A DNA stretch of 64,000 nt from an uncultured Anaerolineae bacterium (GCA_938049385.1 CALIBQ010000035.1:21278-85277); one strand, 5' to 3'; positions 24,295-61,843 are shown, counted from the first letter of the stretch. A program made the numbers and translations. Notes: a model not told the origin generated them from the letters alone.

Positions 24295-24340
24295 TGTAAA
24301 TATGCACTTGATGAGATAAAGCTTCAACTAACCCACTATA

Positions 24341-43081: not shown

Positions 43082-43848
43082 CGATGGGCCTGGAACCCGC
43101 CGATGAGACGCCGGCGCTGGTGGTCGTGGTCAACAGTGCCCTGGACTGGCATCGCGTGCGGGAGGAACGCTGGTACCGCATCCCACTCCGGCGCGCGCCG
43201 CGTCAGGCCGGCGCCGCCTTCCTCGCCTTCTATCACACCGGCATCTTTGCGGAAGAGCGGTGGAGCATCCGCTGGTACGCGCCGGTGCGCTCCGTACAGG
43301 TATTACCCCGATATGTTTTGCTACCTGACGAGCCGGCTCACCCGCGGGCGCCGGAATGGTACTTCCGCTACAGCCTGGGGCCGCTGGAGGAACTGCCGGC
43401 TCCCATCCCCAGCCGGCGGCTCCGCCGCATCTCTTTTATCCCCACCACCCTGGAACGCCTGCTCTCCGCCCAGGATGTCTCGCAACTGTGGATCAAACAG
43501 TCCCTGCGCGAGCGTCTCTGGGTCGAGATGAACCGGCAGGGCATTCATGCCGAGATGGATGCCGGCATCGAAGGCCTGCCGCACGAAACCTTTGATTTCG
43601 TCATCCCTTGTGCGCAGGGCGGTGTGGTGATTGACTGCCTCGAACGGGAAGAGGGGATTCAACGCGGATGTCGCGAGGCACTGCCGGCTTATGCGCCGGC
43701 GGATACCACAGCCGAGCTTGCTCGCCTGGGCTGGAGCCGGCTGTGTTTCACGCGCGCCGCAGTCCATGACATCGTGCACCGCATCTGGGAGGTGATTGAC
43801 GCCCATGGGGGCATGCGGATGAGGCCGGCAGTCACAGCCGGGCGATAA
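43078..43848 (+). CDS. WYRIP-type N-terminal domain (PUA/EVE-like, inferred) fused to a degenerate DUF559/Vsr-like nuclease domain
   Basis: ALVVVVN...DW..VREERWYRIP...FLAFYHT..F..E...IRWYAPV...EWYFRYSLG.L..LP.PIP...RRISFIPTT; C-terminal ERLW.EM...GI...FDFVIPC....VIDC...GWSRLCF. ATGA overlap with uvsE. Confidence 0.7.
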   Translation: MTMGLEPADETPALVVVVNSALDWHRVREERWYRIPLRRAPRQAGAAFLAFYHTGIFAEERWSIRWYAPVRSVQVLPRYVLLPDEPAHPRAPEWYFRYSLGPLEELPAPIPSRRLRRISFIPTTLERLLSAQDVSQLWIKQSLRERLWVEMNRQGIHAEMDAGIEGLPHETFDFVIPCAQGGVVIDCLEREEGIQRGCREALPAYAPADTTAELARLGWSRLCFTRAAVHDIVHRIWEVIDAHGGMRMRPAVTAGR

Positions 43849-44659
43849 TCTCACCCCGCCCGAACGTGCGCACGGCGATGGTCAAGAGCACGACATCCAG
43901 CACCCATATCACCAGGCCAATCAGCGCCACCGTAGGTGTGCTGAAATACAGGACCCCGCCCATCTGGCCGAACAACAGCAGGATGATGGGAATCACCACC
44001 AGCCCGCTTATCTGATAGGCGTCCTGAAAGCTCTTCGCTTTGGCGGAAACCAGGACGATGAACCCGATGCCCAGGGCGGCGGCCGCCGGCACCACCCACA
44101 GTATCAGCACCAGCCAGGCCAGGTTCGGGAAGAATATCCGCCCCAGCACCATGACGCCGCCGATGTTCACCACCACGCTGTACAGCACAAAGCACACCCA
44201 CGAAACGGTTATCGCCGGCAGGAACGCCGCCAGCACCTTGCCGATGAACAGCTCCGCCGTGGTGATAGGGGTGTAAAGCAGGGCCTCCAGCGTCTTGCGC
44301 TCCTTCTCGCCGGCGAAGCTGTCCGCCCCGATGACGCTGGAGACCATGAGCGGAATAATGAGGAAGAACGGGGCGAACATAAACATGGAGGAAAGCATCA
44401 GCCATGCCTGTTGGTCGTTCAGGCCGGCGAACAGGACGCTCAATTCCGCCGGCATATTGGCGAAAAACGCCCCCATCTCCTGCCGCAGTTCCTCCCCGGC
44501 ATCCATCGGCTCCAGATAGAAGGGGAGAAAGATCATCACCGCCGGCATTACAATCATCATGATCAGCGGCACAATGATGATGGGCAGGACCACCCCTTTG
44601 TTGCGCAGGGCAATCCGCAAATCTTTCCGCACAACGGCGCGTACCGCACGAGTGTTCAT
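43832..44659 (-). CDS. ABC-2 type exporter permease
   Basis: AVVRKDLR, ADSFAGEKERKTLEALLYTP, LFIGKVLAA, VSAKAKSFQDAYQ; 6 TM. Confidence 0.9.
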   Translation of the reverse strand: MNTRAVRAVVRKDLRIALRNKGVVLPIIIVPLIMMIVMPAVMIFLPFYLEPMDAGEELRQEMGAFFANMPAELSVLFAGLNDQQAWLMLSSMFMFAPFFLIIPLMVSSVIGADSFAGEKERKTLEALLYTPITTAELFIGKVLAAFLPAITVSWVCFVLYSVVVNIGGVMVLGRIFFPNLAWLVLILWVVPAAAALGIGFIVLVSAKAKSFQDAYQISGLVVIPIILLLFGQMGGVLYFSTPTVALIGLVIWVLDVVLLTIAVRTFGRGEIIARL

Positions 44660-45606
44660 GTGCTCCCTCCCCGGGCGTCGGCCTGAAGCTGGAAATAGAT
44701 GTCCTCCAGGGAGTGCTCGCGCGGTTTGACCGCATAAATCTCCGCGCCGGCCTCCACCAGCGCCCGCACCACCGCCGGCGTGCGCCCTTCCTCGTCCAGC
44801 AGGATGTGCAGTTCAGTATCGTCCACCTCGACCTGCGCCACACCTTCCACCCGCACCAGGGATGCCACTGCCTCTGCCGAAAGCGGCCGGCCCAGACGCA
44901 CGCTGATGCCGTGCCCATGCCAGATGCGCTGGGCCAGCTCCTCCGGGGTGCCCACAGCGATCAGCTCCCCGCGATTGATGACCCCCACCCGGTCGCACAG
45001 GCGTTCCGCCTCCACCAGGTTGTGGGTGCACAGGAAAATGGTGCGCCTCTCCTCCTGGCTGAGGTGCTCGATAAGCTCCGTCACCTGGCGGGCGGCCTCC
45101 GGGTCCAGGCCGGCGGTCGGTTCATCGAGGAACAGGATATCGGGCGCATGGATAAGGGCGCGCGCCAGCGCCAGGCGCTGTTTCATGCCCTTGCTGTAGC
45201 TGGCTACCTTATCATCCGCCCGCGCGCTCAGCTCGAACATCGCCAGCAGTTCCTCCACCCGCCGGCGCAGTACATCGGGGGGCACATCGTACAGCTCGCC
45301 GAAGAGAAAGAGGTTGTCGCGGGCGCTCAACGGCTCGTACAGGGCCGGCGATTCGGTCAGCACGCCAGTGCGTCGACGCACTGCCGGCCCCTGGGAGATA
45401 GGGTCCAGCCCAAGCACGCGGATTTCGCCGGCGGTGGGGTTCAGCACACCGTTGAGCAGACGGACGGTAGTGGTTTTGCCGGCGCCGTTCGGCCCTAGGA
45501 AGCCGAACACCTCCCCGCGAGCAATCTGCAGATTCACATCGTGCACCGCCACCAGCGCGCCGAAATGCCGCGTCAAGCGGCGGGTTTCAATCACCCATTC
45601 GGGCAT
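44656..45606 (-). CDS. ABC exporter ATP-binding protein
   Basis: GPNGAGKTT, YSKGMKQRL, LFLDEPTAGLDP, CTHNL. Confidence 0.95.
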   Translation of the reverse strand: MPEWVIETRRLTRHFGALVAVHDVNLQIARGEVFGFLGPNGAGKTTTVRLLNGVLNPTAGEIRVLGLDPISQGPAVRRRTGVLTESPALYEPLSARDNLFLFGELYDVPPDVLRRRVEELLAMFELSARADDKVASYSKGMKQRLALARALIHAPDILFLDEPTAGLDPEAARQVTELIEHLSQEERRTIFLCTHNLVEAERLCDRVGVINRGELIAVGTPEELAQRIWHGHGISVRLGRPLSAEAVASLVRVEGVAQVEVDDTELHILLDEEGRTPAVVRALVEAGAEIYAVKPREHSLEDIYFQLQADARGGST

Positions 45607-45639
45607 AATACAGGACCTTCTTTCGTGGAAGGGACGACG

Positions 45640-47109
45640 CTACTTGGTGCGGGAGCGCTCCCTAGCCTCAGCGGCTTCCAGAATCTGCTGGATTTTCTCG
45701 GCCGCGCCGTCGGGAAGAGGTACGGGCTTGTGCGATTCCAGGATGCGGTGCAGTTTGCGCTGGATGCGGTCCAGCATGGTAAGACTGCCGGCGGCCTCCC
45801 AGTTCACCCACGGATCGCGGTCCATCAGCGTCGGTATCCAGATTTCCGTGCGGCACAGCTTGGCTGTCTCTACCGCCGACATGAACTCGCCGCCCGGCCC
45901 TACCTGGTCAATCAGGTCCAGCATGATGGTCTCATCGGTGACCTCGATGCCGCGCATAATGCGGCGGGTCATGGCGATGATTTCATCGTTCATCACCAGC
46001 ATTTCCAGCGACCCAATATCCGCGCAGTCCAGGAATCCCACATCATGGACGAGGGTAGCGCCGCTCAGCGCCGAGAGCAGGACCTGGAAGGTGCTCTCGA
46101 TGGCTGCCTGCTGATCCACCACTTTGGCTTCGGAAGCGCCGGCGGTGCCCATGAACGGCAGGCCCAGGTAGCGCGAGATGTCGGACATGGCCGCGCTGTA
46201 AAGGCTCATCTCCGGTCCGCCGTACGCCGGCCGGCCCGTGCGCAGGTCCATCGGCTCCGGCACCCCACCAATGCACACCGGCGCGCCGCGCTTTTTCAAC
46301 TGCAGGATGGCCAGCCCGCTCAATGCCCCCGCCAGATATGCGACAATCAGGCCGGCGCCGGTCACCGGGCCGGTACTGCCGGCCGCCCCCCCGCCGATGT
46401 AAATCACAGGGATATCATGCTCCATGGCCCAGAAAACGTTTTCCAGGTCATGATCCGTGTGAATGAGCGGCGACTGCCAGGTGGAGAAGAAGCCGAACAG
46501 CGGCCGCCGGCGGAACGCTTCCGCGCTCCCCGTCACCGCCAGCGCAATGGCGTACAGGTCCTTGACCTGGTCCACCTGGAACGCCCAGGGCAGGACGGGC
46601 TTGGTCGTGTTGGCGATCATCTCGGCGTACTCATAGACCGAGGCCAAGGTATGGGTCACATCGCTGATCAGGCCCAGGGACATGACGTAGTCAATGTTGG
46701 GCAGGGCATCACAGACCAGTGCGGTCATGCCTGGGTCACCGCGGCGGGTCGGCCGGCGTTCCCCGGTATATGGGTCTATGAAATAGGTGCAGGTGGGGCC
46801 CGGGCCGTAATAGACCTTATCCGGGACGACGTGCAGGGCATGCCGGCCGTCGCGTCCCCAGATGGTGAAACTGCGCGGCGCGGCGGCAATGGCGTCCTGG
46901 ATAATATGCGGCGGGATGCGCACCCGCACCCCATCCACATCGGCGCCGGCCTTGGCCAGCAGATGCCGCGCCTCCTCGTTCAGCACGTTCACACCGGTGC
47001 GGGAAAGGCATTCCAGCGTCGCTTGGAACAGCTTCTCTATTTGCTCATCGGAAAGGACGCGGAACTGCGGCGTCTGAAGAGGGGCATAATTGGCATACAT
47101 CGCTACCAA
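45640..47109 (-). CDS. mttB: Trimethylamine/quaternary-amine:corrinoid methyltransferase, MttB superfamily, non-pyrrolysine (copy 2)
   Basis: LSDEQIEKLFQATLECLSRTGV, GPGPT, DLRTG...GGPE, GTAGASEAKVVDQQAAIE, GATLVHDVGFLD, SLEMLVMNDEI, VGPGGEF; no in-frame TAG. Confidence 0.9.
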   Translation of the reverse strand: MVAMYANYAPLQTPQFRVLSDEQIEKLFQATLECLSRTGVNVLNEEARHLLAKAGADVDGVRVRIPPHIIQDAIAAAPRSFTIWGRDGRHALHVVPDKVYYGPGPTCTYFIDPYTGERRPTRRGDPGMTALVCDALPNIDYVMSLGLISDVTHTLASVYEYAEMIANTTKPVLPWAFQVDQVKDLYAIALAVTGSAEAFRRRPLFGFFSTWQSPLIHTDHDLENVFWAMEHDIPVIYIGGGAAGSTGPVTGAGLIVAYLAGALSGLAILQLKKRGAPVCIGGVPEPMDLRTGRPAYGGPEMSLYSAAMSDISRYLGLPFMGTAGASEAKVVDQQAAIESTFQVLLSALSGATLVHDVGFLDCADIGSLEMLVMNDEIIAMTRRIMRGIEVTDETIMLDLIDQVGPGGEFMSAVETAKLCRTEIWIPTLMDRDPWVNWEAAGSLTMLDRIQRKLHRILESHKPVPLPDGAAEKIQQILEAAEARERSRTK

Positions 47110-47142
47110 TCCTTAATCATGAGATGAAGCTGGCCGGCATGG

Positions 47143-47469
47143 CTACGCCCGCAGGACAGCACTGCCGGTGAGCCAGACCGCATACACGACGATAAGCGTG
47201 CCAAGCGCGAAAAGGGCGGCTTTAAGCCGGCGGTCCGCCGCCGGCGAAATCCCCAGGTCCAGGATGATAGCGCGCACCCCCATCAAGGCGTGCGCCGTCA
47301 CTACCATCAGGAACACCGTCTCCAGCAAAAATATCACTGGATTCGATAAATAGTGTATCACATCGGCATAGGTGCGCAAGCCGCCCTCCACGACGAAATG
47401 GTTGGCGACCATATGCACCACCAGCAGGACGGTCAGCAGTATCCCCGAGAGTGCCTGCCATATCCACAT
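47143..47469 (-). CDS. sdhD: SdhD/FrdD-like hydrophobic membrane anchor
   Basis: WQALSGILL..LL.VHM, TYADVI..LSNP, AHALMGVRAIILD (heme His); 3 TM. Confidence 0.82.
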   Translation of the reverse strand: MWIWQALSGILLTVLLVVHMVANHFVVEGGLRTYADVIHYLSNPVIFLLETVFLMVVTAHALMGVRAIILDLGISPAADRRLKAALFALGTLIVVYAVWLTGSAVLRA

Positions 47470-47479
47470 CGCTGTGCCC

Positions 47480-47905
47480 TCACCCCATCATCAGAATCAT
47501 GCGCACGGCGACCGCGGTAAGCACAATAGAGAGCACGAAGGCCCCCCAGAACAGCTCAGCCTGCCGCCGGCTCCCCACGCCCAAGCCCAGCAGGATGACC
47601 CGCAGTCCGTTCAGGCCGTGATACAGCATGCCGAAGATGAGCACGCCGTCGAAGGCCACGAAAAGCGGCGAACGCGCCAATGCGATGAACGCATCCCATG
47701 CCTGCGGGCCGCGCGCCAGCGTGCTCAGCACTGTCAGGTGCAGGAAAAGGTAGAACACCAGCCCGATGCCGGTCAGCCGCATGAGGATGAAAGCCAGCCA
47801 GCCCTCGCGCCGGCCGTGCAGGTCCGCCCACGCCGCGGCGCGCCGCCACCAAGGCGTCCGAGCGACATGCTCCGAAACGGGCCGATAAGGGAGCGAGCGT
47901 TCCAT
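47480..47905 (-). CDS. sdhC: SdhC-like cytochrome b556 subunit
   Basis: FILMRLTGIGL..YL.LH, YHGLNGLRVIL (heme His); 3 TM. Confidence 0.85.
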   Translation of the reverse strand: MERSLPYRPVSEHVARTPWWRRAAAWADLHGRREGWLAFILMRLTGIGLVFYLFLHLTVLSTLARGPQAWDAFIALARSPLFVAFDGVLIFGMLYHGLNGLRVILLGLGVGSRRQAELFWGAFVLSIVLTAVAVRMILMMG

Positions 47906-47911
47906 CGGGCA

Positions 47912-48616
47912 TCACCTCCTTTGGGCTTCGGCGGGCTGACGCCGGCCGCGCAGGATCAGATAGCGCCTCAGCCAGCCGATGGCCTGCGATGGGTCCACAT
48001 GAGAGGGGCACACTTCCACGCATTCCATCACCGAGTGACAGCGCCAGGCGCCGTGGGCATCGCCGGCCAGCAGGCACAGGGAGCGGATATCCCTGCCGCG
48101 CGGCTCCTCCAGCAGACGCTTGATCATCGCCAGCGGCGAAGGCCCCAGGTACGCGCTGTCACTGCCCACCACGGGACAGGCGGACATGCATAGGCCGCAT
48201 TCGATGCAGTCCTCGAAGCGCGTGCCTTCTTCCCCGCCGGCGGTCAGCTCATCCCGCCGCACGTACGGCGCCTGGATGGCCGCCATGCGCTCCATCAGCG
48301 GCTTGACATCCACCACCAGATCGCCCACCCAGGGGAAGTTCCGCAGAGGCTCCAGGGTAACCGTCGCACCGTCCGGGAACTCCGCGATTGGCGTCAGGCA
48401 CATCAGCCGTTCGCGCCCGTTGACGCGCACACCGCACAGACCGCAGGAGGCGTGATGACAGGCATGCCGGAACAGCAGAGTCGGGTCCTGGGTCGCCCAG
48501 ACCTTCTGCACCGCATCCAGGATGTTCAGGTGCTCGTCCACAGTAATCCGATAGGTCTGGTAGGCCGCCGGCCGGCCGGGGCCACCGCGTAGAATGCACA
48601 GGTTCAGCGTCCGCAC
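47912..48616 (-). CDS. sdhB: SdhB/FrdB-like iron-sulfur subunit
   Basis: [2Fe-2S] ACHHASCGLC...LMC, LEPLRNFP.V.DLVVD, CIECGLCMSACP [4Fe-4S], WRCHSVMECVEVCP [3Fe-4S]; GTG start. Confidence 0.9.
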   Translation of the reverse strand: MRTLNLCILRGGPGRPAAYQTYRITVDEHLNILDAVQKVWATQDPTLLFRHACHHASCGLCGVRVNGRERLMCLTPIAEFPDGATVTLEPLRNFPWVGDLVVDVKPLMERMAAIQAPYVRRDELTAGGEEGTRFEDCIECGLCMSACPVVGSDSAYLGPSPLAMIKRLLEEPRGRDIRSLCLLAGDAHGAWRCHSVMECVEVCPSHVDPSQAIGWLRRYLILRGRRQPAEAQRR

Positions 48617-48645
48617 AATTCCCCTCCGAATGTCCAGGGTCCGGA

Positions 48646-49818
48646 TCAGACGTAAAAGGCATGATATGGCAGTAGCGGCACTTCGCGCGTGCGGCAGGGG
48701 TTGGTGATGCCCGTTGCCTCGTTGATGACATCCCCCATGACCTCGGCCATCAAGCGCGAGGTGGTGGTCTTGCCGCCGATAATGGAGAACAATCCGGGTG
48801 CACCGTCGCGCGCGTGGTTGAAGCAGGAGAAGCCGCGCGTGACGCCGCGCGCGCCAGGGTCTGCGGTCACCAATTGGCTGGATTCGTGGAGCAGCGGGCG
48901 CGCCGCGGCCGAAATCCCGCGCAGAGGGGCGGAGCGGAAGCCGGGGATGAACTCCTCGCCGGCCGCCAGCATTGCCTCGACCTGTTCGGGCGGAATGGCG
49001 ATGTAGTCCGGGTTTTCCACCGGCCAGGAAGTGGTGCCGACCACGGAGTTGCGCCGCTGGGGCACGATGATGCCGCCGTCACAGGGCGGGCAGAGCCGGT
49101 TGATGACGCGCCGCACCCACCGCCGGCCCACGGCGACCATCGTACCGGCCACCGGCAGGACGGCGATGTGCACGTGCGCCATGGCGCCGATGCGCCCGGC
49201 CCAGGGGCCGGCGGCATTGACCACCAGGTCCGCCCCGATGGCATATTCCCGCCCATCCCGACGATCGCGCACCTTCACCCCGCTCACCGAACGCCCGTTC
49301 CATACCAGGTCCACGACCTCGGTATAGGTGTGCACGGCCGCGCCGTGATGCTTGGCGGTTGCCAGGAAGGCCAGCGTGAAGTGGAAGGGATCAAAGACGC
49401 CGTCCTGCACCTTCACCGCCGCCAGGATGCGCGGGTTGAGGTTAGGCTCCAGCCGCAGGGCCTCTTTGATAGGAATCTCCTCCGCCGGCACGCCGGCCTG
49501 GGCGCATGCTTCGAGGAAGGCCTCTTTGTACGACAGGTCCTCCTCGTTCAGCGCCACGAACAGCCCGCCGTTCAGCTCCAGGATATCGGGCATGAGCTTG
49601 CGCATCAGCGCATTGTCCTCGGCGCACTCCCGCGCCGCCGGCGGGTCGTTCAGCACATAGCGCGCCCCGGAATGCAGTAGCCCGTGGTTGCGTCCTGTCG
49701 TCTCGCAGGCCACTTCACCCCGTTCGACCACGGTGACGCGGTAGCCGCGCAGGGTCAGGTCGTGGGCGACGGCGGCCCCGGTGGAGCCGGCGCCGATGAT
49801 GACCACATGCAGTGTCAT
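48646..49818 (-). CDS. glpA: GlpA-like FAD dehydrogenase (anaerobic glycerol-3-phosphate dehydrogenase subunit A family) lacking the C-terminal extension
   Basis: IIGAGSTG, DLTLRG..V.VVERG, TTGRNHGLLHSGARY, ARECAEDN, VVNAAGPWA, ARPL, GGKTTTSRLMAE...D; 390 aa, ending soon after CRTREVPL. Confidence 0.85.
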   Translation of the reverse strand: MTLHVVIIGAGSTGAAVAHDLTLRGYRVTVVERGEVACETTGRNHGLLHSGARYVLNDPPAARECAEDNALMRKLMPDILELNGGLFVALNEEDLSYKEAFLEACAQAGVPAEEIPIKEALRLEPNLNPRILAAVKVQDGVFDPFHFTLAFLATAKHHGAAVHTYTEVVDLVWNGRSVSGVKVRDRRDGREYAIGADLVVNAAGPWAGRIGAMAHVHIAVLPVAGTMVAVGRRWVRRVINRLCPPCDGGIIVPQRRNSVVGTTSWPVENPDYIAIPPEQVEAMLAAGEEFIPGFRSAPLRGISAAARPLLHESSQLVTADPGARGVTRGFSCFNHARDGAPGLFSIIGGKTTTSRLMAEVMGDVINEATGITNPCRTREVPLLPYHAFYV

Positions 49819-49851
49819 GAAGCCTCTCCAGCAAATGGGAACTGCCGCGTA

Positions 49852-51096
49852 TTATAGCCGAGAAAGGGCTTGGTCCAAATCGGCGATGATGTCCTCGGGG
49901 TCCTCCAGCCCCACCGACAGACGGATGAGGCCGTCATCAATGCCGGCGGCGGCGCGCTCCTCCGGCGTCATATGCTCATGGGTGATGGTCGCCGGATGCA
50001 TGCAGATGGTGCGGCTGGTGCCGAAGGTCACCGCGTGGATGATAAGCTGGAAGCTGTCGATGACTTTGGCCGCGCCGGCGATGCCGCCCGGCACTACAAA
50101 CGACAGCAGGCCGCCCTGTGCCTTCGCCTGACGCTTTGCCAGCTCATGTTGGGGGTGATCCGGCAGACCGGGATAATTGACCCAGCGCACCTTAGGATGA
50201 TCGCGCAGGAACTCCGCCACCTTCTGCGCGTTGGAGCTGTGCCGCTCCATGCGCAGGGAGAGCGTCTCGAGATACTGGAGGGTCAGCCACGATGACAGCG
50301 GGTCCATGATGGAGCCGACGAACTCCGTGGTGTTCCAGCGGATGTCCTCGCACAGGTCCTCCGGCCCGACGATGGCTCCGCCGATGACGGTAGCGTTGCC
50401 GGACAGAAACTTGGTGATGGAGAGCAGGATGATATCCGCGCCCAACTCCATCGGCTTCTGCAGGGCCGCCGTCAGCGTGGTGTTGTCCACCAGCAGGGGC
50501 ACGCCGTGCGCGTGAGCCACGTCAGCGACCGCCTTGATGTCGGTCACGAACAAGCAGGGGTTGCTGGGGGTCTCCACCCAGACCAGCTTGGTGCGTTTGT
50601 CGATCTGCTCCGCCCAGGAATCGGGGTTGGCCGGGTCCTTGACGAAGCGGAATTCCACGTTACAGCGCTCGGGGAAAATGCTGGAGGCCTGCTTGTATCC
50701 CTCGCCAAAGGTGTTGAGGGTCGTTACCACATTATCGCCCGGCCGAGCGATGGTGAAGATCAGGTTGAAGAGCGCTTGGGAGCCGGAGCCGGCCAACACA
50801 GCGCTCTCCCCGCCTTCCAGCGAGGCCAGCCGCTCTTCCAGCACCGCCGCCGTCGGGGTCTTGGTGCGGCCGTACACCGGATAAGGAATCTTGTCAAAGC
50901 GCTCGTAGGGATAGGTCATGGATTGGATGATGGGAACCGTGAAAGTATTGAACTTGCCCATATCCTTAAGCGGCCGAAAGCCGGCATGCAGGGCGCGCGT
51001 GTCGAATCCGAGATGTGCATCCGGCCGCCGGCGCTTCGGCGCCTTCGGGTCATATACCCACGGTTTGCGCATGAAGAACAGCTCTTCCTGGCTCAT
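49852..51096 (-). CDS. Cys/Met-metabolism PLP enzyme (cystathionine gamma-synthase / methionine gamma-lyase family), atypical active site
   Basis: TRALHAG, YGRTKTPT..VLEERLASLEG, SGSQA, VETPSNP, VDNT, LSITKFLSG (PLP Lys), VNYPGL, VTFG...TICMHPATITH, LIRLSVGLED. ATG 51096 with GGAGG SD. Confidence 0.9.
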   Translation of the reverse strand: MSQEELFFMRKPWVYDPKAPKRRRPDAHLGFDTRALHAGFRPLKDMGKFNTFTVPIIQSMTYPYERFDKIPYPVYGRTKTPTAAVLEERLASLEGGESAVLAGSGSQALFNLIFTIARPGDNVVTTLNTFGEGYKQASSIFPERCNVEFRFVKDPANPDSWAEQIDKRTKLVWVETPSNPCLFVTDIKAVADVAHAHGVPLLVDNTTLTAALQKPMELGADIILLSITKFLSGNATVIGGAIVGPEDLCEDIRWNTTEFVGSIMDPLSSWLTLQYLETLSLRMERHSSNAQKVAEFLRDHPKVRWVNYPGLPDHPQHELAKRQAKAQGGLLSFVVPGGIAGAAKVIDSFQLIIHAVTFGTSRTICMHPATITHEHMTPEERAAAGIDDGLIRLSVGLEDPEDIIADLDQALSRL

Positions 51097-51164
51097 TCTG
51101 ATTCTCCTCCGTTTGTTTCCATGACAGCGATTATGGAAGACATTTGGCGATCCCAAAGCCGGCA

Positions 51165-53240
51165 TCAGGCACTGCGGCGAATCACGGGATGAATGGCGTG
51201 CAGGGTGTCGGCCGGCAGATGACAGTAGATGATATGGTCCATACTCATGCGGCGAGCCGGCGGCTCCTCACGCTCGCAGATTTCCCCGATTTTGTAGGGA
51301 CAGCGCGTGTGGAAGCGGCATCCCGCCGGCGGATTCACCGGGCTGGGAATCTCCCCGCTTAAGCGGATGAACTCCTGCTTCAGCGTCGGATCCGGCCGCG
51401 GCACTGCCGCCAGCAGAGCGGCGGTATACGGATGGCTGGGGGGCGAGAAGATCTCCTCCACCTGGCCGTACTCCACGATCTTGCCCAAATACATCACCGC
51501 CACATAGTCGGAGAAAAAGCGCACACTGCTCAGATCATGCGATATCAGGATCATCGCCGTCTGATATTCCTGCTGTATCTCCTGCAGTAGCGTCAGCACC
51601 GCCGCCTGTACGGAGACGTCCAGCGCCGATACCGGCTCATCGCAGATGACCATCTTCGGGTTGGAGGCGATGGCACGGGCGATGCCCACACGCTGTTTCT
51701 CCCCACCGGAGAGCTGTCTGGGCAGGCGGTAATAATAGGTCTCGTTGAGCTTGACTGCCTCGAGCAACTGCACGACGCGTCCGTACACCTCGTCCGCCGG
51801 CACCACGCGGAAGCGCTTCAACGACATGGCGATCTGGTCGCCCACAGTGTAAGACGGGTTCAGTGTGCCGTCTGGGTTCTGGAAGACCATCTGGAGATGG
51901 CGGATGACCTCGCGCCGGCGGCGCTCCACCGGCTCATCCGAGATGTCAATGCCCAGAAACTCCATTTTGCCGCCCGTAGGCGCCTCCAGCCCCACGATGG
52001 TGCGCGCCAGCGAGCTTTTGCCGCATCCCGATTCTCCCACGATGCCCAGGGTATAGCCGCAGTCCACCGAGAGGCTCACGCCGTCCACCGCCCGCACGTA
52101 GCGCCGCTTTTCCAGACCGATCAGACTGCGCACGCTGGTGAAGGGCACCGGGTAATAGGTGCGGACATCCTCCACCTTGAGGATGGGTTCCTCGGCGGCC
52201 GGCTTGGCACAGACGTACGTGCTTGACTGCGCCGGCTTTTTCGTCCACAGCGGCGTCTCCAGCCACTCGCGCGCCCGCCAACAGCGGGAGAAATGACCCG
52301 GGGTAATCTCCTCGAAAGAGGGCCGGCCTTCCGAACACTCCGGCGCGGCATACTCACAGCGCGGGGCGAAGATACAGCCGGCCGGCACCTCGGCCGGCGA
52401 GGGCACCCGCCCAGGTATCGGGTGCAGTTCGCGCGTGCCGCGCGGGGCATCCACATCCGGCAGACAGCGCATCAGCCCCACCGTATAAGGATGCAGAGGG
52501 TGCGAGTAAATCTGCGCCGTGGGCGCTAGCTCCACCAGCTCGCCGGCGTACATCACGCCGACCTTGTCCGCCACGCGCGCGATGACCCCCAGGTTGTGGC
52601 TGATATACAGCGTCGCCGTGCGGAACTTCTCCTGCAATTCGGCCACCAGGTCCAGCACCGCCGCCTCCACCGTTACATCCAGCGCAGTGGTCGGCTCATC
52701 CATGATGAGCAGTTCCGGCTGGTTGAGCATGGCCATGGCGATGCAGACGCGCTGCTGCTGGCCGCCGGAGAGCTGATGGGGATAGCGGACAAGGATGCTC
52801 TCCGGCTCCGGCATATAGACATCCTCCAGGGCCTTGATACAGCGCCGGCGAATCTCATCCGCCGGCAGGTCCGCATGGGCCGCCAGCGCCTCGGCCAACT
52901 GCCGGCCGATGCGCATGGTGGGGTTCAGGGAGGACATCGGCTCCTGATAGACCATGGCGATATGGGCGCCGCGCAGTTCCCGCAGGCTTTTCTCGTCCAG
53001 GCTCTGCATGTCCTGCCCCTTGAAGATAATGCGCCCGTTGGTGATGCGGCCGTTCCTGCCCAGGAATCCCACCAGGGAATAGGCCACCGTGCTTTTGCCA
53101 CAGCCCGATTCCCCCACCAGCCCCAGGTTCTCCCCAGGCATGATCTCGAAGCTCACATCCCGCACCGCCTGGATGAAGCCCTTGCGGGTCTTATACGCAA
53201 TGGCCAGGTTCTGCACCGAAAGGATCGGCTCTTCCTTCAT
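51165..53240 (-). CDS. Fused DppD-DppF oligopeptide/nickel-type ABC ATPase
   Basis: Two NBDs (GESGCGKST / GESGCGKSS; LSGGQQQR / LSGGEKQR; DEPTT / DEPVS), each with a C-terminal Cys-containing oligo_HPY region. Confidence 0.93.
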   Translation of the reverse strand: MKEEPILSVQNLAIAYKTRKGFIQAVRDVSFEIMPGENLGLVGESGCGKSTVAYSLVGFLGRNGRITNGRIIFKGQDMQSLDEKSLRELRGAHIAMVYQEPMSSLNPTMRIGRQLAEALAAHADLPADEIRRRCIKALEDVYMPEPESILVRYPHQLSGGQQQRVCIAMAMLNQPELLIMDEPTTALDVTVEAAVLDLVAELQEKFRTATLYISHNLGVIARVADKVGVMYAGELVELAPTAQIYSHPLHPYTVGLMRCLPDVDAPRGTRELHPIPGRVPSPAEVPAGCIFAPRCEYAAPECSEGRPSFEEITPGHFSRCWRAREWLETPLWTKKPAQSSTYVCAKPAAEEPILKVEDVRTYYPVPFTSVRSLIGLEKRRYVRAVDGVSLSVDCGYTLGIVGESGCGKSSLARTIVGLEAPTGGKMEFLGIDISDEPVERRRREVIRHLQMVFQNPDGTLNPSYTVGDQIAMSLKRFRVVPADEVYGRVVQLLEAVKLNETYYYRLPRQLSGGEKQRVGIARAIASNPKMVICDEPVSALDVSVQAAVLTLLQEIQQEYQTAMILISHDLSSVRFFSDYVAVMYLGKIVEYGQVEEIFSPPSHPYTAALLAAVPRPDPTLKQEFIRLSGEIPSPVNPPAGCRFHTRCPYKIGEICEREEPPARRMSMDHIIYCHLPADTLHAIHPVIRRSA

Positions 53241-53285
53241 GCGTCTTTCTTCCCATGGATGATAGCGTCTGTGCCGGCCGGCTTC

Positions 53286-54167
53286 TCACTGGTACCGCAT
53301 CGTTTCCTCGCGCAGGCCGTCGGCGAACAGGTTCAGCCCAACGACCAGCGTGACGATGGCCACCGTCGCGGACAGCACTGGCCAGACATTGGTGGTCATA
53401 AACTTATGCCCTTCCTGGACCATCCCGCCCCAATCAGGTGTGGGCGGCGGCAGACCCAGGCCGAGGAAGCCCAGCGTACCGATATAGAAGGCGGCATAGC
53501 CGATGCGCAGGAGCAAATCCACGATCAGCGGTCCGCGGCAGTTGGGAAGTATTTCGCGGAACATGATGTGGACAGGACGATCCCCGCGCAGGCGCGCCGC
53601 GGCGATATATTCCCGGGTGCGGATATCCAGCGTCAGGGCACGGATAAGACGCGCAATGCCCGGCGCACCACCGATGGCGATGGCGATGACCACGTTGACA
53701 GGAGATGCGCCCACCGCCGAAATGATAATCATATACAGGAGGATGGTAGGGAAGGCCATGATGGAGTCGAGGATGCGCATCACGACCTCGTCCACCCAGC
53801 CGCCGAAGTAGCCGGCCGGCAGGCCCAGTATCATGCCCAGCAGAAAAGCCACCCCCACCGAGATGGGCGCCAGGAGCAGGATGGTGCGAGCGCCAAAGGC
53901 CACGCGCGCCCACACATCCCGCCCCAGATGGTCGGTCCCCAGAATGTGTTGCGGCGATGGGCCTTTATTCACATTCTTATAGTCCTGTTCGTACGGCGTG
54001 TATTGAGTCAGGTACGGGGCAAAAATCGCGATGAAAACCCATATCAGCACAATGGCCAACCCCAGCACCGCCGTCGGGGAGGAGAATATCAGCCCCACCC
54101 CTTCTTTGAAGCGCCGCCAGCGCAGTTGTGCCGGCGTGATGCGTATGAACGTGCTCTCTACAGCCAT
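53286..54167 (-). CDS. DppC/OppC-type ABC permease
   Basis: HILGTDHLGRDVW, EYIAAARLRG, ILPN, FLGLGLPPPTPDWG. Confidence 0.93.
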   Translation of the reverse strand: MAVESTFIRITPAQLRWRRFKEGVGLIFSSPTAVLGLAIVLIWVFIAIFAPYLTQYTPYEQDYKNVNKGPSPQHILGTDHLGRDVWARVAFGARTILLLAPISVGVAFLLGMILGLPAGYFGGWVDEVVMRILDSIMAFPTILLYMIIISAVGASPVNVVIAIAIGGAPGIARLIRALTLDIRTREYIAAARLRGDRPVHIMFREILPNCRGPLIVDLLLRIGYAAFYIGTLGFLGLGLPPPTPDWGGMVQEGHKFMTTNVWPVLSATVAIVTLVVGLNLFADGLREETMRYQ

Positions 54168-54180
54168 GTTCCTCTCCCGG

Positions 54181-55491
54181 TTATGCGTACCGCACGCGAG
54201 GATTCAGGAACGAGTAGATGATATCCGCAATCAATTGGGTGCCGACCGCCAGCAGGATCAGGAACATGGAGGCGGCCTCAATGGCATAGACATCCTTATA
54301 CAGCGCGGCGTTGAGGATGAAGTTCCCCAGGCCGGGATATCCGAACACCGATTCGACCACTACCAGACCGCCGATGAGCCAGTTCACGTGGAGCATAATA
54401 ACCGTGATCGGCGCCAGCAGTGAGTTGCGGAGCACATGGCGTAGGACCACCTGAGTACGGGAAAGGCCTTTGAGGACGGCGGTGCGGACGTAGTTGCTCT
54501 GCACCACTTCCACCACGCTGGCGCGAGTGATGCGCAGGATGTACCCCATTTCCACCAGGCTGGCGGTCAGCACCGGCAGAACCAGCATCTTGGGGTTATC
54601 CAGGATGGCAGTTTGCGAAGCAAAAACTGTGGCACCCGGCAGGACCTTAAGCCATAGGCTGAAGATCATGATCAGGAAGATGCCCGTGGCGAAATCTGGC
54701 GAAGCAGTTGTTACCAGGCCGAAGAGGGAAAGGATGCGGTCTGCCGGCTTCCCCTCGTTCAGGCCGGCCAGCAGGCCCAATAAGAGACCCAGCGGGATGG
54801 ACACCAGGAAGGCCAGCGCCGCCAGAATGCCCGAGTTCTTCAGCCGGCTGGCGATCAGCTCGCTCACCGGGGCGCGATAGCGCAGGGAAACGCCGGCGTC
54901 CCCTCTCAGCAGTCCTTTGGTCAGGGGGATGTAATCTACCGGCGCGTTCTCGGACTTGCGCCAGCCGGAATATTCGTAGCGGTACTCGACGCCTCCCTGC
55001 CCCTTGATCCACAGCGCGGCGCGGTTGGCATTGTCCACCCCCCAGAAATACTGGATGCCGCTTTCATCCGTCCTCCATGCGCCCTCGTCCGGCACCCCAA
55101 CGGTAGACCCGTCCGGCTGGCGGATATACTTGTACAATTGGCCGTCCTGTATGCCCCAGCGCACCAGGCTCCCATCCTCATCCACGGCCCACCACTGGCG
55201 GAAGCGCTCGACGATGCCCTGCTGGATGACGATTTCCTTCAGCGGCCGGCCAATTTTGCGCTCTGCCTGCCAGTCGGAACCGAACAGCCAGGAGATATAG
55301 CGGGTCGCCACCGGCCGGTCCAGACCCAACTGGTTTTCCATGGACTTTTCCTGTTCCGGCGTGGCATAGGCACCCAGGATATTGCGGGCCACGTTGCCCG
55401 GCGCAATCTCGACCACTGCGAAGATAACGATCGAGACCACCAGCATGGTGATGACCATGGTGAACAGTCGGCGGATGATGTACCTTGCCAT
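54181..55491 (-). CDS. DppB/OppB-type ABC permease with a large extracytoplasmic insertion
   Basis: MARYIIRRL, PGNVARNILG, LGLDRP...RY..WL, GDAGVS, YVRTAVLKGLS...HVLRN, ESVFGYPGLG. Start at ATG 55491. Confidence 0.9.
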   Translation of the reverse strand: MARYIIRRLFTMVITMLVVSIVIFAVVEIAPGNVARNILGAYATPEQEKSMENQLGLDRPVATRYISWLFGSDWQAERKIGRPLKEIVIQQGIVERFRQWWAVDEDGSLVRWGIQDGQLYKYIRQPDGSTVGVPDEGAWRTDESGIQYFWGVDNANRAALWIKGQGGVEYRYEYSGWRKSENAPVDYIPLTKGLLRGDAGVSLRYRAPVSELIASRLKNSGILAALAFLVSIPLGLLLGLLAGLNEGKPADRILSLFGLVTTASPDFATGIFLIMIFSLWLKVLPGATVFASQTAILDNPKMLVLPVLTASLVEMGYILRITRASVVEVVQSNYVRTAVLKGLSRTQVVLRHVLRNSLLAPITVIMLHVNWLIGGLVVVESVFGYPGLGNFILNAALYKDVYAIEAASMFLILLAVGTQLIADIIYSFLNPRVRYA

Positions 55492-55553
55492 GCAAACCTT
55501 TCCTCTGTGTGGTTGGCGCAGACAGTAGTCGCCGGCGCCGACTCCCTCCCCTA

Positions 55554-55590
55554 CCGCTCCTGGCACCTATAGTATCAGTGCCAGGAGCGG
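55554..55590. other. Perfect 13-bp inverted repeat inside the operon (stabiliser or attenuator)
   Basis: CCGCTCCTGGCAC / GTGCCAGGAGCGG with an 11-nt loop. Confidence 0.55.
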
Positions 55591-55621
55591 CTGTGGAAAG
55601 GGGAAAGAGAAAGGAGGCGCT

Positions 55622-57079
55622 TCATTTGCGAGAAGTGCGGTTGATCCACTCCTGTTCGCGCTCCACAATCTTGTGGATGTCGCGCTGGATGTCCGCCGGC
55701 AGTGGCTCCGGCTTGTGGCTCTCCAGGATGCGGTCAATCTCCTGTGCGGCGCGCCCTTCCATGGTCGGCCGGCCCCTCGCCTCCCAGGAGGCGAAATCGC
55801 CCTTCTCCAGCAGTTTGCCGTAGAACGGCTCGCGGAAGTGGCGAAGGGTGTGCTCATGGTTCAGGTAGTTGCCCGTTGGGCCCAGCTCGTCAATCACATC
55901 CAGCGCCAGCGTCTCATCGTTCACCAGCACGCCGGCGGTAGCCGCCCGCAGGAAGCCCAGCCAGTCGTTCGCCATGACCATAATCTGCAGGGAACCCATC
56001 AGGCCAGAATCCATGAAGCCGACGTCATGCACAATGTTGGCGCCGTGAATGAGCGCCGTCATCAAGCTCAGCACCACCTCGCCGCCGGCCTGCTGGTCCA
56101 GCACCTTGGCATCGGTGGAGCCGCCCAGCCCGAACACCGGCAGGTTGTAGTACTTGCCCATGCTGGTGGGCACGCCCTGCTCGTCCGCCAGCACATAGTT
56201 GCCCACCATGGTCTTCAGGTTGTACGGGCCGCCGTTCCAGCCGGGCACCGCGATGGGCACGCCTTCCCGCACGAGCTGGGAGAGCACCACACCCAGGAGG
56301 ATGCCGGCGTTCATGGAGGCCATACAGCCGGCGGTGGTGGCCGGGGAGTTGACGCCGCCGGCGTTCAGCGGGATCCAGAGCTGGGGCAGTCCCTTCTCCG
56401 CCAGATACATGCACTTCTGCAGGGCTTCCTGGTTGATGATCATGCCCGAGGTGACGTTGATGTAGCAAGTGGCGAAGGGGCGCCGCTGGAAGCTCTCGGC
56501 ACCGCCGGCGACAATCTCGCACATCTCGACCGCCGCCTTCGTCCCCTCAAAGTCCGGCGTGACGAAGACGATGGGCTTGGTGGTGTTGTTCAGCATCACT
56601 TCCATCTGGTAGCGGTCGTAAATGCGCTGGTCCACATCCTCGGGCAGGAACATGGACATGACAAAGTCGATCTCGGGGAGCGCGTCCTGGACGATGGCGG
56701 CATCGCGCACATCGCTGAGGAGCGGCCGGCGGCGCTGGCCGGTGCGGTGGTCGAGGATGTTCAGGCAGTCCGAACCGCCGCCGAAGTACGAGTTGTACCC
56801 CCAGGCGCGGATGGCCACCTTGCCGTTGCGGTCGTACAGCGTCATGCGCTTGGGAGCGGTCTGCAGTGCCCAATTGACCAGATGCTCCGGCACGCGCACG
56901 CGGATGCCGTCCACCTTGGCGCCGGCCTTGGCCAAAATCTCGCGCGCCTTTTCATCGTGAACGTCAACGCCCGTCCGTTCCAGGATCTCCAGGGTCGCGA
57001 CGTGGATTTTCTCGCATTCTTGCTGGCCCATACGGGCATAATGGGCGCTCGTCATGCTCAAGCCGTGTGTTTCGATCAT
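55622..57079 (-). CDS. mttB: MttB-superfamily methyltransferase, non-pyrrolysine (copy 1)
   Basis: EKIHVATLEILERTGV, FGGGSDC, GLGGSTDAKVLDQQAGGE, GANIVHDVGFMDSG, GPTGNYL..EHTL..FR; no in-frame TAG. Confidence 0.9.
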   Translation of the reverse strand: MIETHGLSMTSAHYARMGQQECEKIHVATLEILERTGVDVHDEKAREILAKAGAKVDGIRVRVPEHLVNWALQTAPKRMTLYDRNGKVAIRAWGYNSYFGGGSDCLNILDHRTGQRRRPLLSDVRDAAIVQDALPEIDFVMSMFLPEDVDQRIYDRYQMEVMLNNTTKPIVFVTPDFEGTKAAVEMCEIVAGGAESFQRRPFATCYINVTSGMIINQEALQKCMYLAEKGLPQLWIPLNAGGVNSPATTAGCMASMNAGILLGVVLSQLVREGVPIAVPGWNGGPYNLKTMVGNYVLADEQGVPTSMGKYYNLPVFGLGGSTDAKVLDQQAGGEVVLSLMTALIHGANIVHDVGFMDSGLMGSLQIMVMANDWLGFLRAATAGVLVNDETLALDVIDELGPTGNYLNHEHTLRHFREPFYGKLLEKGDFASWEARGRPTMEGRAAQEIDRILESHKPEPLPADIQRDIHKIVEREQEWINRTSRK

Positions 57080-57165
57080 CTTACCTTCCTCACGCGAAGT
57101 AACTGGACCACAATCGGATAAGTTACATTTATATTATACACCATTCCGTCCGAGCACGGACAAAA

Positions 57166-57195
57166 TGGTAGGGGCGGGCCGGCCCGCCCCTACCA
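57166..57195. repeat. Perfect 30-bp palindrome of GTAG-REP type
   Basis: TGGTAGGGGCGGGCC|GGCCCGCCCCTACCA. Confidence 0.75.
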
Positions 57196-57213
57196 CGGCA
57201 GTGCGTACAGGGA

Positions 57214-58932
57214 TTACGCTTCCTTCCAGGTCTCGTAGTAGACGACGTACTCTTCCGGCGAAGGCGGCACATCGTGCACCTTCTTGCTGTGGATGGTCCA
57301 CACGTTCATGAAGAACGGGGTGCAGATGGAGCCGCGCTCCTTCTGGATGGTCTCCAGCTTGCACATGATCTCGCGGCGCTTTTCCAGGTCCAGCGTGCGC
57401 AGGGCTTCCTGGAGAAGCTGTTCGAACTCGGCATCCACCCAGCGGCTCTCGTTCCACGGCACGGGCTGGCCGTCGCGGCTGATGTACGCCAGCGGCAGGG
57501 TCATGATGGCCAGCGGCCGGTGCGCCCACCAGGTAATGCTCATGTTCCACTCGGTCCAGCCATCCCAGAATTGGGACGCCGGCATGGTGTTCAGGGTGAT
57601 GCGGAAGCCCGCCGGCGCGGCATCTTCCTTGAGCGCCTGCGCATAGGCCATGGACTCCGGCCAGTCGCTCACCACCGTCAGGGTCACATCCAGGCCGTCG
57701 GGATAGCCGGCTTCCGCCAGGAGCGCTTTAGCCTTCTCGGGGTCGTAGGGGAAGGGCTCCACCGGGCAGTACTCAGGATGCGCCGGCGCGACGTGGCTGT
57801 CGTTACCAATGGTGCCCTCGCCCATCAGCGCCAGCGCCAGGATTTTCTCGCGGTTGTGGCAGTGCTTGAGCGCCAAGCGCACGCGGTTGTCGGTCCAGGG
57901 CTCCTGATCGACGCGCACCCGCAGGACGCGTGTGGCCGAGGTCGGGGTCGAGATAATCACGAAGTTGGGGTCATCCTTGATGCCTTGCCAGACCGTCACC
58001 GGCGGTTCAATCACGGTATCCACCTCGCCGGTCTTGAGCGCGGAGAGGCCGGCAGTTGGGTCCTCGCCGAGCTGGACCATGATGATTTCATCCAAGTACG
58101 GCAGGGGCTTGCCGTCCACGCCGTTGCGCCAGTACCCCTCACGCCGCACCAGCCGGCAGCGCTCGCCCGGCACATACTCGGCCATGGTGAAGGCGCCAGT
58201 GCCGATGGGCTGGCGGGTGATATCGCCCTCGAACTCCTTGGGCACGATCAGGGCGCCGTAGTGATACATGTCGTAGGGCACGGTAATGGACGGACTCTTC
58301 AAATGGAGGACGACGGTGTAATCGTCCACCTTCTCCACGCCGGAGGCGTCCAGATAGCTCATCTGGCCGAGCAGGGACGAGCCGACGTTGACATCCAGCC
58401 ACTGGTTGAAGTTGAAGACGACATCGTCGGCGGTCAGTTCCTTGCCGTTGTTGAACTTGATGCCCTTGCGCAGGTTGAGCTTCCAGGTCAGCAAGTCATC
58501 GCTGGCTTCCCACGATTCGAGCAGGTACGGGTGGACAATGCCCTTGGCATCGATGTAGGTCAGGTACTCGAAGACGTGGCGCCAGGCGTGAGACTGGCTG
58601 ACTAGGGAGAAGCGGGCCGGATGGTCGACGCGCTCGACGCGGGTGGAGGCTTTCAGGGTGCCGCCGCGCACGGGCATTCCCGCCGGCGTGGGCGTTGCCG
58701 CCGGCGCGCTGGTGGCGGTCGGCGGGACCGGCGTCTCTGTCGCGGCCGGGGCACTCGTCGCCGGCGCCGGCGTGGCCGTTTCCTTCGGCGCACAGGCCGC
58801 CAGCGCCGCCGCGCTCACCGCCGACATGCCCAACAGCGTGGAAATGCGGATGAAGTCACGCCGAGAGATGCGGCCGTTGCGCAGTTGCTCCTGCGCCTCC
58901 TGGATGATGGGATGCAGTTTTTTCTCGCTCAT
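57214..58932 (-). CDS. Family 5 (DppA/OppA) ABC substrate-binding lipoprotein with twin-arginine signal
   Basis: ISRRDFIR Tat motif, LAAC lipobox, Ala/Thr/Pro tether, LRKGIKFNNG..LTADDV.F, PIGTGAF, DNRVRLAL, YDPEKAKALLAEAG. Confidence 0.93.
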   Translation of the reverse strand: MSEKKLHPIIQEAQEQLRNGRISRRDFIRISTLLGMSAVSAAALAACAPKETATPAPATSAPAATETPVPPTATSAPAATPTPAGMPVRGGTLKASTRVERVDHPARFSLVSQSHAWRHVFEYLTYIDAKGIVHPYLLESWEASDDLLTWKLNLRKGIKFNNGKELTADDVVFNFNQWLDVNVGSSLLGQMSYLDASGVEKVDDYTVVLHLKSPSITVPYDMYHYGALIVPKEFEGDITRQPIGTGAFTMAEYVPGERCRLVRREGYWRNGVDGKPLPYLDEIIMVQLGEDPTAGLSALKTGEVDTVIEPPVTVWQGIKDDPNFVIISTPTSATRVLRVRVDQEPWTDNRVRLALKHCHNREKILALALMGEGTIGNDSHVAPAHPEYCPVEPFPYDPEKAKALLAEAGYPDGLDVTLTVVSDWPESMAYAQALKEDAAPAGFRITLNTMPASQFWDGWTEWNMSITWWAHRPLAIMTLPLAYISRDGQPVPWNESRWVDAEFEQLLQEALRTLDLEKRREIMCKLETIQKERGSICTPFFMNVWTIHSKKVHDVPPSPEEYVVYYETWKEA

Positions 58933-59277
58933 CGGATCCTCCTTTCCTGAACGCGAGAAGATTTAGTGAAACCGGACGAGTGAGTCAACGAAGGATAAGC
59001 TACTGCAGAACACAGAGAGGGGAGCATGTGGATGGGAGCACAGACAGCGGGCTTGACCGGGTTCCGACTGCCGGCCAAACAGGAACACATGCTCGCGTGA
59101 CACGAACGGGAGCCGTTGTGTGGAATGGACTGCTGTTCATTTGGCATCAGCCGGCGGCAGTTTCGGTGCCCCATTGTCTCCTCGAATCAACCAGACCTCT
59201 TGGACCGGCCTGTCCGGGCATGCGTCCCCCGACGGGCATCCCCCAACATGGCGAATAGTGTATATTTCCGCACGCCC

Positions 59278-59320
59278 ATTTGATATATCAGATTATAGTT
59301 CAAATGTGATGATTTGTCAA
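59278..59320 (-). promoter_or_regulatory. Consensus sigma70 promoter of the mttB operon with an adjacent palindromic operator
   Basis: Minus strand TTGACA (59320-59315)-N17-TATAAT (59297-59292); palindrome TGATATATCA (59281-59290) over the predicted start site. Confidence 0.8.
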
Positions 59321-61818: not shown

Positions 61819-61843
61819 CGTCGCTATCCCCTTTCTTTCGCCT

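Follow-up and report, generated by a model that had tools for sequence, protein, structure and literature searches.

The 64,000-nucleotide stretch of an uncultured Anaerolineae bacterium analysed here (GCA_938049385.1, CALIBQ010000035.1:21278-85277; about 63% G+C; hereafter the window) carries, on its minus strand from 58932 down to 43832, a run of thirteen genes with intergenic gaps of -4 to 134 nt. The run opens with a twin-arginine (Tat) lipoprotein substrate-binding protein (SBP) of the SBP_bac_5 family (Dpp/Opp/Nik/opine class; 57214-58932). It continues with MttB1, a non-pyrrolysine methyltransferase of the MttB superfamily (PF06253) encoded in an uninterrupted frame (55622-57079), a DppB-like permease that contains an additional loop domain of about 160 residues (54181-55491), a DppC-like permease (53286-54167), a fused DppD/DppF double ATPase with two ABC_tran and two oligo_HPY domains (51165-53240) and a diverged pyridoxal 5'-phosphate (PLP) enzyme of the Cys_Met_Meta_PP family (PF01053; 49852-51096), whose 414-residue form has the length of its orthologues. 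These are followed by a short, 390-residue GlpA-type FAD flavoprotein of the class that forms the catalytic subunit of glycerol-3-phosphate (G3P) dehydrogenase (48646-49818), an SdhB-like iron-sulfur subunit (47912-48616), SdhC- and SdhD-like membrane anchors (47480-47905 and 47143-47469, respectively), a second non-pyrrolysine MttB paralogue, MttB2 (45640-47109), and an ABC-2 exporter, consisting of a DrrA-like ATPase (44656-45606) and a permease (43832-44659) whose genes overlap by 4 nt. A regulator of the GntR/FCD (FadR) type (PF00392 and PF07729) is encoded divergently on the plus strand (59414-60085). On balance, we read this arrangement as a mosaic of three units under one GntR/FCD-repressed operon, namely a conserved cassette, an inserted G3P module and an exporter passenger, and not as one pathway.

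Layout and control elements were as the initial annotation, a reading of the same DNA from sequence alone, had described them: all genes it named lie in the given order on a single strand with short gaps, behind a consensus promoter, a palindromic operator and a divergent GntR gene. The promoter, TTGACA-17 nt-TATAAT (59320-59292, minus strand), matches the sigma-70 consensus at 12 of 12 positions and is the sole such match between 43000 and 60500; promoter-like and terminator-like matches in general were no more frequent across the region than in shuffled sequence. The operator TGATATATCA (59281-59290) is a perfect 10-bp palindrome that begins 1 nt past the -10 hexamer, sits within a larger inverted repeat (CATTTGA...TCAAATG) and has no second match, even with one mismatch allowed, anywhere in the 64 kb. 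The same element, or a variant differing at one or two bases, recurs in nine other loci that carry orthologues of the PLP gene (L007, L009, L014, L016, L017, L018, L019, L022 and L025), where it occupies the GntR-MttB1 or GntR-SBP intergenic region and frequently abuts a -10 box. A GntR helix-turn-helix, an FCD domain, a divergent regulator gene and a palindrome overlapping the controlled promoter are all shared with repressors of the FadR subfamily; here, however, the operator is defined solely by its conservation across loci. The leader of about 350 nt (58933-59285, minus strand) gave no Rfam match at the gathering threshold or at E-values up to 1 and folded no better than shuffled sequence (z = +1.5), and on these two grounds we rejected a riboswitch or other structured leader. 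It does contain an 81-codon, Cys-rich upstream open reading frame (58929-59174, minus strand) with its own GAGGAG Shine-Dalgarno sequence and a TGA stop overlapping the ATG of the SBP gene; neither this frame nor the leader was conserved in any relative locus fetched.

We surveyed orthologues on contigs from one genome per species and tallied neighbouring genes over loci by tblastn. Very many metagenome homologues of the PLP enzyme were found at 76-82% identity. In the species-level survey, its orthologues (72-82% identical) were confined to Chloroflexota (Anaerolineales, Thermoflexia, Aggregatilineaceae and 'Chloroflexia'); beyond this clade, identity fell sharply to 43% or less. On a sister contig from an Anaerolineae metagenome-assembled genome (L001, GCA_052743915.1), the part of the operon running from dppB through the ABC-2 genes is found again, with proteins 78-97% identical to those of the window. 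Of the 17 loci with enough upstream flank, 16 have an MttB1 orthologue (65-78% identical) immediately ahead of the PLP gene; the exception, L011, has a different MttB paralogue. Divergent GntR orthologues (56-68%) were counted in 11 loci, SBP5 and/or DppBCDF orthologues in 9 and MttB2 orthologues in 8 (52-71%, and 93% in the sister contig; L008, L010, L015, L016, L018, L019 and L001 among them). Loci around other members of the PLP-enzyme family, 62 in all, served as controls, and no MttB gene was present within 10 kb in any of them.

These comparisons bear on the simplest alternative, in which MttB1 and the PLP enzyme would lie side by side in methylamine-utilisation islands without any functional connection and the operon would be a chance assembly. 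The Chloroflexota loci are indeed crowded with MttB paralogues, and the gene order around the pair is fluid. Yet the pair itself is retained while all else rearranges, outlives insertion sequence (IS) elements in L007 and transporter insertions in L020 and in the window, shares a conserved operator and has no counterpart in the control loci, which makes mere adjacency highly improbable. Because of the pairing, the empty controls and the operator shared with nine other loci, the comparative evidence argues that the MttB1-PLP core is a real co-regulated and co-inherited unit. Its ancestral order appears to be a GntR gene diverging from MttB1 and the PLP gene, with or without MttB2 behind them. 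Of the gene set whose conservation across genomes the initial annotation had proposed as a check, the MttB1-PLP pair is kept together, usually along with the GntR gene, the operator and an importer of the Dpp or GPH type and often along with MttB2, a corrinoid protein and a pterin methyltransferase; the GlpA-SdhBCD genes, which it had counted as part of the same set, are not.

Several features of the relatives' loci round off this picture. Additional genes there encode a B12-binding corrinoid protein, a pterin-binding methyltransferase, DUF1638 and racemase-fold proteins, a class-I aminotransferase and a GPH-family transporter of the major facilitator superfamily; the corrinoid protein and the methyltransferase adjoin the orthologues in L009, L011, L016, L017 and L018, and a single locus can contain as many as five or six MttB paralogues. 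In L020, genes for RidA and a PALP enzyme come after the PLP gene, which fits an elimination releasing an enamine or imine. A PrpD-like gene behind the PLP gene of L010 was considered as a hint of a methylcitrate cycle and dropped, as it was seen at this single locus only. As separate observations, two IS elements (DDE_Tnp_1 and IS110-type) separate the MttB1 gene from the PLP gene in L007 (7076-9956), so that mobile DNA can split the pair, and in L008 (18523-21245) and L016 (12337-15000) a class-I aminotransferase gene immediately precedes the MttB2 orthologue or is linked to it by translational coupling. The latter arrangement is a second pairing of an MttB with a PLP enzyme, besides that of MttB1 with the gamma-family enzyme. 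In L011, L014, L019 and L023, a third MttB type, about 38% identical to MttB2, is encoded roughly 3-7 kb upstream of the PLP gene and repeatedly adjoins a molybdopterin subunit of the xanthine dehydrogenase family (about 760 residues), which suggests that these islands also house a separate pathway, perhaps for a methylated N-heterocycle.

Both methyltransferases of the window are full-length members of the MttB fold. MttB1 scored 272.7 bits against PF06253 over profile positions 27-496 of 500 and MttB2 267.7 bits over positions 27-491; both are continuous reading frames free of UAG, and the pyrrolysine position holds Ser or Ala, placing both among the non-pyrrolysine members. Against TIGR02369, the model for the trimethylamine methyltransferase MttB proper, they reached 355 and 384 bits, respectively, below the cut-off of 525. 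Searches of the PDB gave no clue to their ligands, as pyrrolysine-containing MttB scored only slightly above the glycine betaine enzyme MtgB for MttB1 (171 versus 158 bits) and for MttB2 (200 versus 175 bits). To our knowledge, about six substrates have been assigned to non-pyrrolysine MttB proteins, while thousands of these proteins have no known substrate.

The binding pocket was more informative. MtgB holds glycine betaine through cation-pi contacts of Tyr97 and Phe356 and through Arg312 and His348, which bind the carboxylate; Arg312 is kept in all characterised non-pyrrolysine members, and the aromatic pair is not conserved among the other characterised members (PMC13080624). In the window, Tyr97 is replaced by Ser in MttB1 and Pro in MttB2, Phe356 by Gly and Ala, and Arg312 by Phe and Met, with the Phe invariant in 15 MttB1 orthologues and the Met in 7 MttB2 sequences. 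His348 remains His in both enzymes as part of an HD pair that is invariant within each of the two clades, and acidic residues have been gained near the pocket. The cassette thus shares with the systems of MtgB/MtgC/MtgA(D), MtpB, MtcB, MtyB and MthB the full-length fold without pyrrolysine and, in the relatives' loci, a nearby B12-binding corrinoid protein, pterin-binding methyltransferase, transporter and GntR-type regulator. It differs from them in an identity of only about 30%, in the loss of Arg312 and of both cation-pi aromatics alongside the conserved HD pair, in the constant pairing of its MttB with a PLP enzyme and in the lack of a corrinoid gene within the window. We read the MttB-PLP cassette as a variant of the corrinoid-dependent demethylation pathways.

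The PLP enzyme matched PF01053 over the full-length domain (392.8 bits), and, among solved structures, methionine gamma-lyases came nearest to it (E about 1e-93). Of the NCBIfam models, those of O-acetylhomoserine (OAH) sulfhydrylase and methionine gamma-lyase matched best; the enzyme reached the cut-off of no NCBIfam model, scoring at best 355.4 bits against TIGR01326 (cut-off 495.1) and 342-344 bits against the methionine gamma-lyase models (cut-offs 550-666). It was aligned with the methionine gamma-lyase of Citrobacter and with a diverse sample of 62 members of the family. The Schiff-base Lys229, Asp204, which contacts N1 of PLP, and Arg392, which binds the alpha-carboxylate, are retained and identical in 62 of 62 relatives, and Tyr75 and Arg77 of the phosphate loop are kept as well. 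In contrast to this intact core, the Tyr found in 62 of 62 relatives (Tyr113/114 of methionine gamma-lyase) is Phe130 here; in the enzyme's own clade, 15 of 17 sequences have Phe and 2 have Tyr. Tyr at this position stacks on PLP and protonates poor leaving groups. Five further near-invariant positions are changed in the clade, from Asn (61/62) to Thr80, from Thr or Ser (60/62) to Gly133, from Pro (61/62) to Ala210, from His (61/62) to Asn234 and from Asp (54/62) to Thr360. In addition, Glu132 is invariant in the clade and Glu is found at this position in none of the 62 others, and the Cys of methionine gamma-lyase is replaced by Glu. A Glu-to-Arg exchange in the 'TSRT' block was considered as a unique anion-binding change and rejected, since 30 of 62 family members have Lys or Arg there.

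Compared with methionine gamma-lyase, cystathionine gamma-lyase and synthase and OAH sulfhydrylase, the enzyme therefore has the same fold, length, catalytic Lys/Asp/Arg set and phosphate-loop Tyr/Arg, but it is at most 43% identical to any family member outside its clade, falls below all their cut-offs, differs at the positions above and is genomically tied to MttB. An ordinary methionine or cystathionine enzyme, the case in which the initial annotation would have given up its proposal, is consequently not what the locus appears to encode: missed cut-offs and the exchange of the active-site Tyr for Phe support an enzyme outside these two groups.

Its nearest structures and models would also suit a different role, in which the PLP enzyme deals with the methyl group instead of the skeleton of the substrate. 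MttB and the corrinoid protein would then methylate homocysteine, and the PLP enzyme would cleave the resulting methionine to methanethiol and 2-oxobutyrate, or supply homocysteine. The kinship with methionine gamma-lyases and OAH sulfhydrylase speaks for such a shuttle, as does the link between methionine synthesis and MttB-type demethylation in marine bacteria (PMC12478193). Against it, the Tyr needed for departure of a thiolate is Phe and the lyase's Cys is Glu, every NCBIfam cut-off is missed, and the pterin-binding (folate) methyltransferase beside the corrinoid protein in relatives means that a folate route for the methyl group exists. We regard the shuttle as unlikely.

Between the PLP gene and MttB2 lie the four genes on which a unified pathway would have to depend. 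The initial annotation rightly recognised a GlpA-type G3P dehydrogenase class, the established activity of which is oxidation of glycerol-3-phosphate; the protein is, however, a short form that scored 411.8 bits against TIGR03377 (cut-off 552.8), aligned with model positions 1-377 of 530 only and lacks the C-terminal third of true GlpA. The module is not an anaerobic GlpABC, as SdhBCD homologues stand in place of GlpB and GlpC, nor is it a succinate:quinone oxidoreductase, as its flavoprotein belongs to the DAO/GlpA class and no SdhA gene is adjacent. The Cys motifs for the 2Fe-2S, 4Fe-4S and 3Fe-4S clusters are all present in the SdhB-like subunit. More than 4000 homologues of the same short length exist, including ones in Verrucomicrobia and Ktedonobacteria, and in every neighbourhood fetched the SdhB-, SdhC- and SdhD-like genes follow on the 3' side of the short glpA, forming a four-gene unit. 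This unit adjoins a glycerol kinase gene in L002, L004/L005, L089, L090 and L092, usually together with genes for GlpF and a DhaK/L/M phosphotransferase system, and stands alone in L091 and L093. The window GlpA retains 147 of 153 residues that are invariant among the glycerol-cluster homologues. Given the unit's occurrence with glycerol kinase elsewhere, the retained residues and the intact cluster motifs, GlpA-SdhBCD is best read as a putative autonomous glycerol-3-phosphate:quinone oxidoreductase that has been inserted here.

On the basis of synteny, a 'GlpA-SdhBCD' class had already been recognised in Thermofilum-related archaea, including Thermofilum pendens, in a study that gives glpBC as the partners of glpA in bacteria (Commun Biol 2025, PMC11962113). 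The window module, with its truncated glpA, the sdhB/C/D-like genes behind it and the glycerol context of its homologues, is a bacterial member of this already predicted class. Of the known systems, the one predicted for T. pendens and E. coli GlpABC stand closest to it. It resembles the T. pendens system in these traits and differs from it in that it is bacterial, widespread and, here, located inside a methylamine-type operon without glpK.

Inside an MttB operon, the module was found only in the window and in the sister contig; the sister genome with this arrangement is 95% identical. No trace of it was seen in 20 of 20 other orthologous cassette loci. Judged by gene spacing, with gaps of 33 nt between the PLP gene and glpA and of 39 nt between sdhD and mttB2, the module is probably co-transcribed with the cassette.

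It is on this point that the proposal of the initial annotation has to be weighed. In that proposal, one substrate, the head group glyceryl-O-(N,N,N-trimethyl)homoserine of the betaine lipid DGTS, unites three activities: MttB demethylates, the PLP enzyme releases the glycerol by gamma-elimination, and the resulting C3 unit is oxidised by GlpA-SdhBCD. We weighed free homoserine betaine along with it as a variant of the substrate. The three activities do sit in one probable transcript with the tight spacing just given, the five or six MttB paralogues in some relatives would make three demethylations numerically possible, and a GPH-type transporter, of the glycoside/lysolipid class, is present in some relatives. 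However, the module is absent from the 20 other orthologous loci and elsewhere belongs to glycerol operons. Free glycerol requires a kinase before it can enter a G3P dehydrogenase; the operon has no glycerol kinase gene, and homologues of the module usually lie beside glpK. MttB1 and MttB2 are also without Arg312, a residue on which the binding of trimethylhomoserine, as an alpha-carboxy betaine, should depend. Furthermore, enzymes of this PLP family require a primary amine, so that all three methyl groups would have to be removed; for the last two of these steps, on a tertiary and a secondary amine, we know of no precedent among non-pyrrolysine MttB enzymes. Finally, with Phe where the proton-donating Tyr would stand, the active site is poorly suited to an alkoxide (glycerol) as leaving group. 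Owing to the lineage-specific joining of the G3P module, the three demethylations, the missing kinase and the active-site changes, we consider the DGTS head group quite unlikely as the substrate. Equally poor are the prospects of the broader version, in which an HD-type, Arg312-less MttB followed by a Tyr-less PLP enzyme would form a new kind of corrinoid pathway whose fused G3P dehydrogenase points to a glycerol or glycerophosphate conjugate. Of the candidate catabolic pathway, the conserved combination of import, demethylation and a PLP enzyme is supported, and its unification with GlpA-SdhBCD through a glycerol conjugate is not.

The mosaic reading accommodates these observations in the following way. 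A Dpp-type ABC importer would bring in a methylated compound, from which MttB1, and probably MttB2, may pass one or more methyl groups to a corrinoid protein encoded outside the window. The diverged PLP enzyme, encoded right behind MttB1 in relatives, could then eliminate the demethylated amino-acid skeleton to a 2-oxo acid and ammonia. The GntR/FCD protein would act as repressor of the operon, and only in this lineage would GlpA-SdhBCD have come to lie, by insertion, between the PLP gene and MttB2. Gene content, control elements and co-conservation support a Chloroflexota cassette in which an importer, demethylases of the MttB type and a non-standard PLP enzyme would together be controlled through a GntR operator. 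Our best guess for the likeliest substrate class is an L-alpha-amino acid with a methyl-onium group in its side chain, of the S-methylmethionine type or a nitrogen analogue; it is favoured because the carboxylate-binding Arg is missing, acidic residues lie near the MttB pocket and the PLP enzyme would need no protonation of the leaving group. A classical alpha-carboxy betaine is less likely. A literature search returned no link of MttB with methionine gamma-lyase in Chloroflexi and none with S-methylmethionine.

Several points weigh against the mosaic reading. Its enzymatic steps, methyl transfer and elimination, and its expression are predictions from sequence, and the side-chain onium class is argued only from residues that are missing. 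The 64-kb window holds no gene for a corrinoid protein, a pterin methyltransferase or an activator. The tight spacing on both sides of the G3P module hints at a functional link between module and cassette in this lineage, a link that the mosaic reading treats as incidental. Were methionine the product of demethylation, a gamma-lyase acting on it would not be expected to have lost the catalytic Tyr. Finally, transporters of the GPH family, used by some relatives, typically carry glycosides and have no obvious fit to an amino acid.

The transport genes of the window were in line with an importer of the Dpp/Opp type. The N-terminus of the SBP shows the twin-arginine motif SRRDFI and the lipobox LAAC followed by a Thr/Pro linker, and SBP orthologues (51-63% identical) adjoin the cassette in L007, L008, L009, L015 and L017. 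Searched against the PDB, the SBP gave no clue to its ligand, the best matches being generic peptide, nickel and opine binders. The DppB-like permease carries its insert, which is rich in Trp, Tyr and Gly, between the N-terminal transmembrane segment and the BPD_transp_1 core, and is 436-461 residues long compared with the usual 310-340 or so; long forms of 399-437 residues also occur in L001, L006, L008, L015 and L020, with the 436-residue form called in L001. The ABC-2 exporter is kept beside the cassette only in L001 and is read as a lineage-specific passenger.

Beyond the operon, genes for a UbiD-family decarboxylase, a weakly matching URO-D/MtaA-like protein of 361 residues and a TRZ/ATZ-type amidohydrolase lie upstream on the same strand (60472-63999, minus strand); in relatives, the cassette has none of these three genes as a neighbour. 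At the other end, a convergent open reading frame of 323 residues (42877-43848, plus strand) shares 17 nt with the end of the gene for the ABC-2 permease and has no Pfam match; its homologues adjoin UvdE in L001. The sole Rfam match in the window is a glycine riboswitch aptamer (RF00504, 63.1 bits; 24201-24296, minus strand). A search of sequencing runs with the window DNA returned matches in hot-spring and marine metagenomes only and no RNA runs, and a plasmid collection gave trivial ABC-motif matches only. An archaeal source, suggested by a weak Class_III signal and HVO matches, was rejected in view of the sigma-70 promoter, the Shine-Dalgarno sequences and the Anaerolineae relatives; the source is read as a thermophilic bacterium of the Chloroflexota.

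These findings have consequences for both protein families and for the organisms. GlpA-SdhBCD, until now described, by synteny, only in Thermofilum-related archaea, emerges as a common type in bacteria, with examples in Chloroflexota, Verrucomicrobia and Ktedonobacteraceae. Should the glyceryl-trimethylhomoserine reading be true after all, it would provide the first catabolic route for betaine lipids. All non-pyrrolysine MttB enzymes with an assigned substrate keep the carboxylate-binding Arg, which the cassette enzymes lack. Together, the Arg-less MttB, a PLP enzyme with a rebuilt active site, a repressor with its operator and two alternative importers constitute an expressible set for finding a new class of methylated substrates, which might be sulfonium or side-chain onium amino acids, and which would be relevant to the recycling of methylated osmolytes or lipids by anaerobic and thermophilic Chloroflexota.

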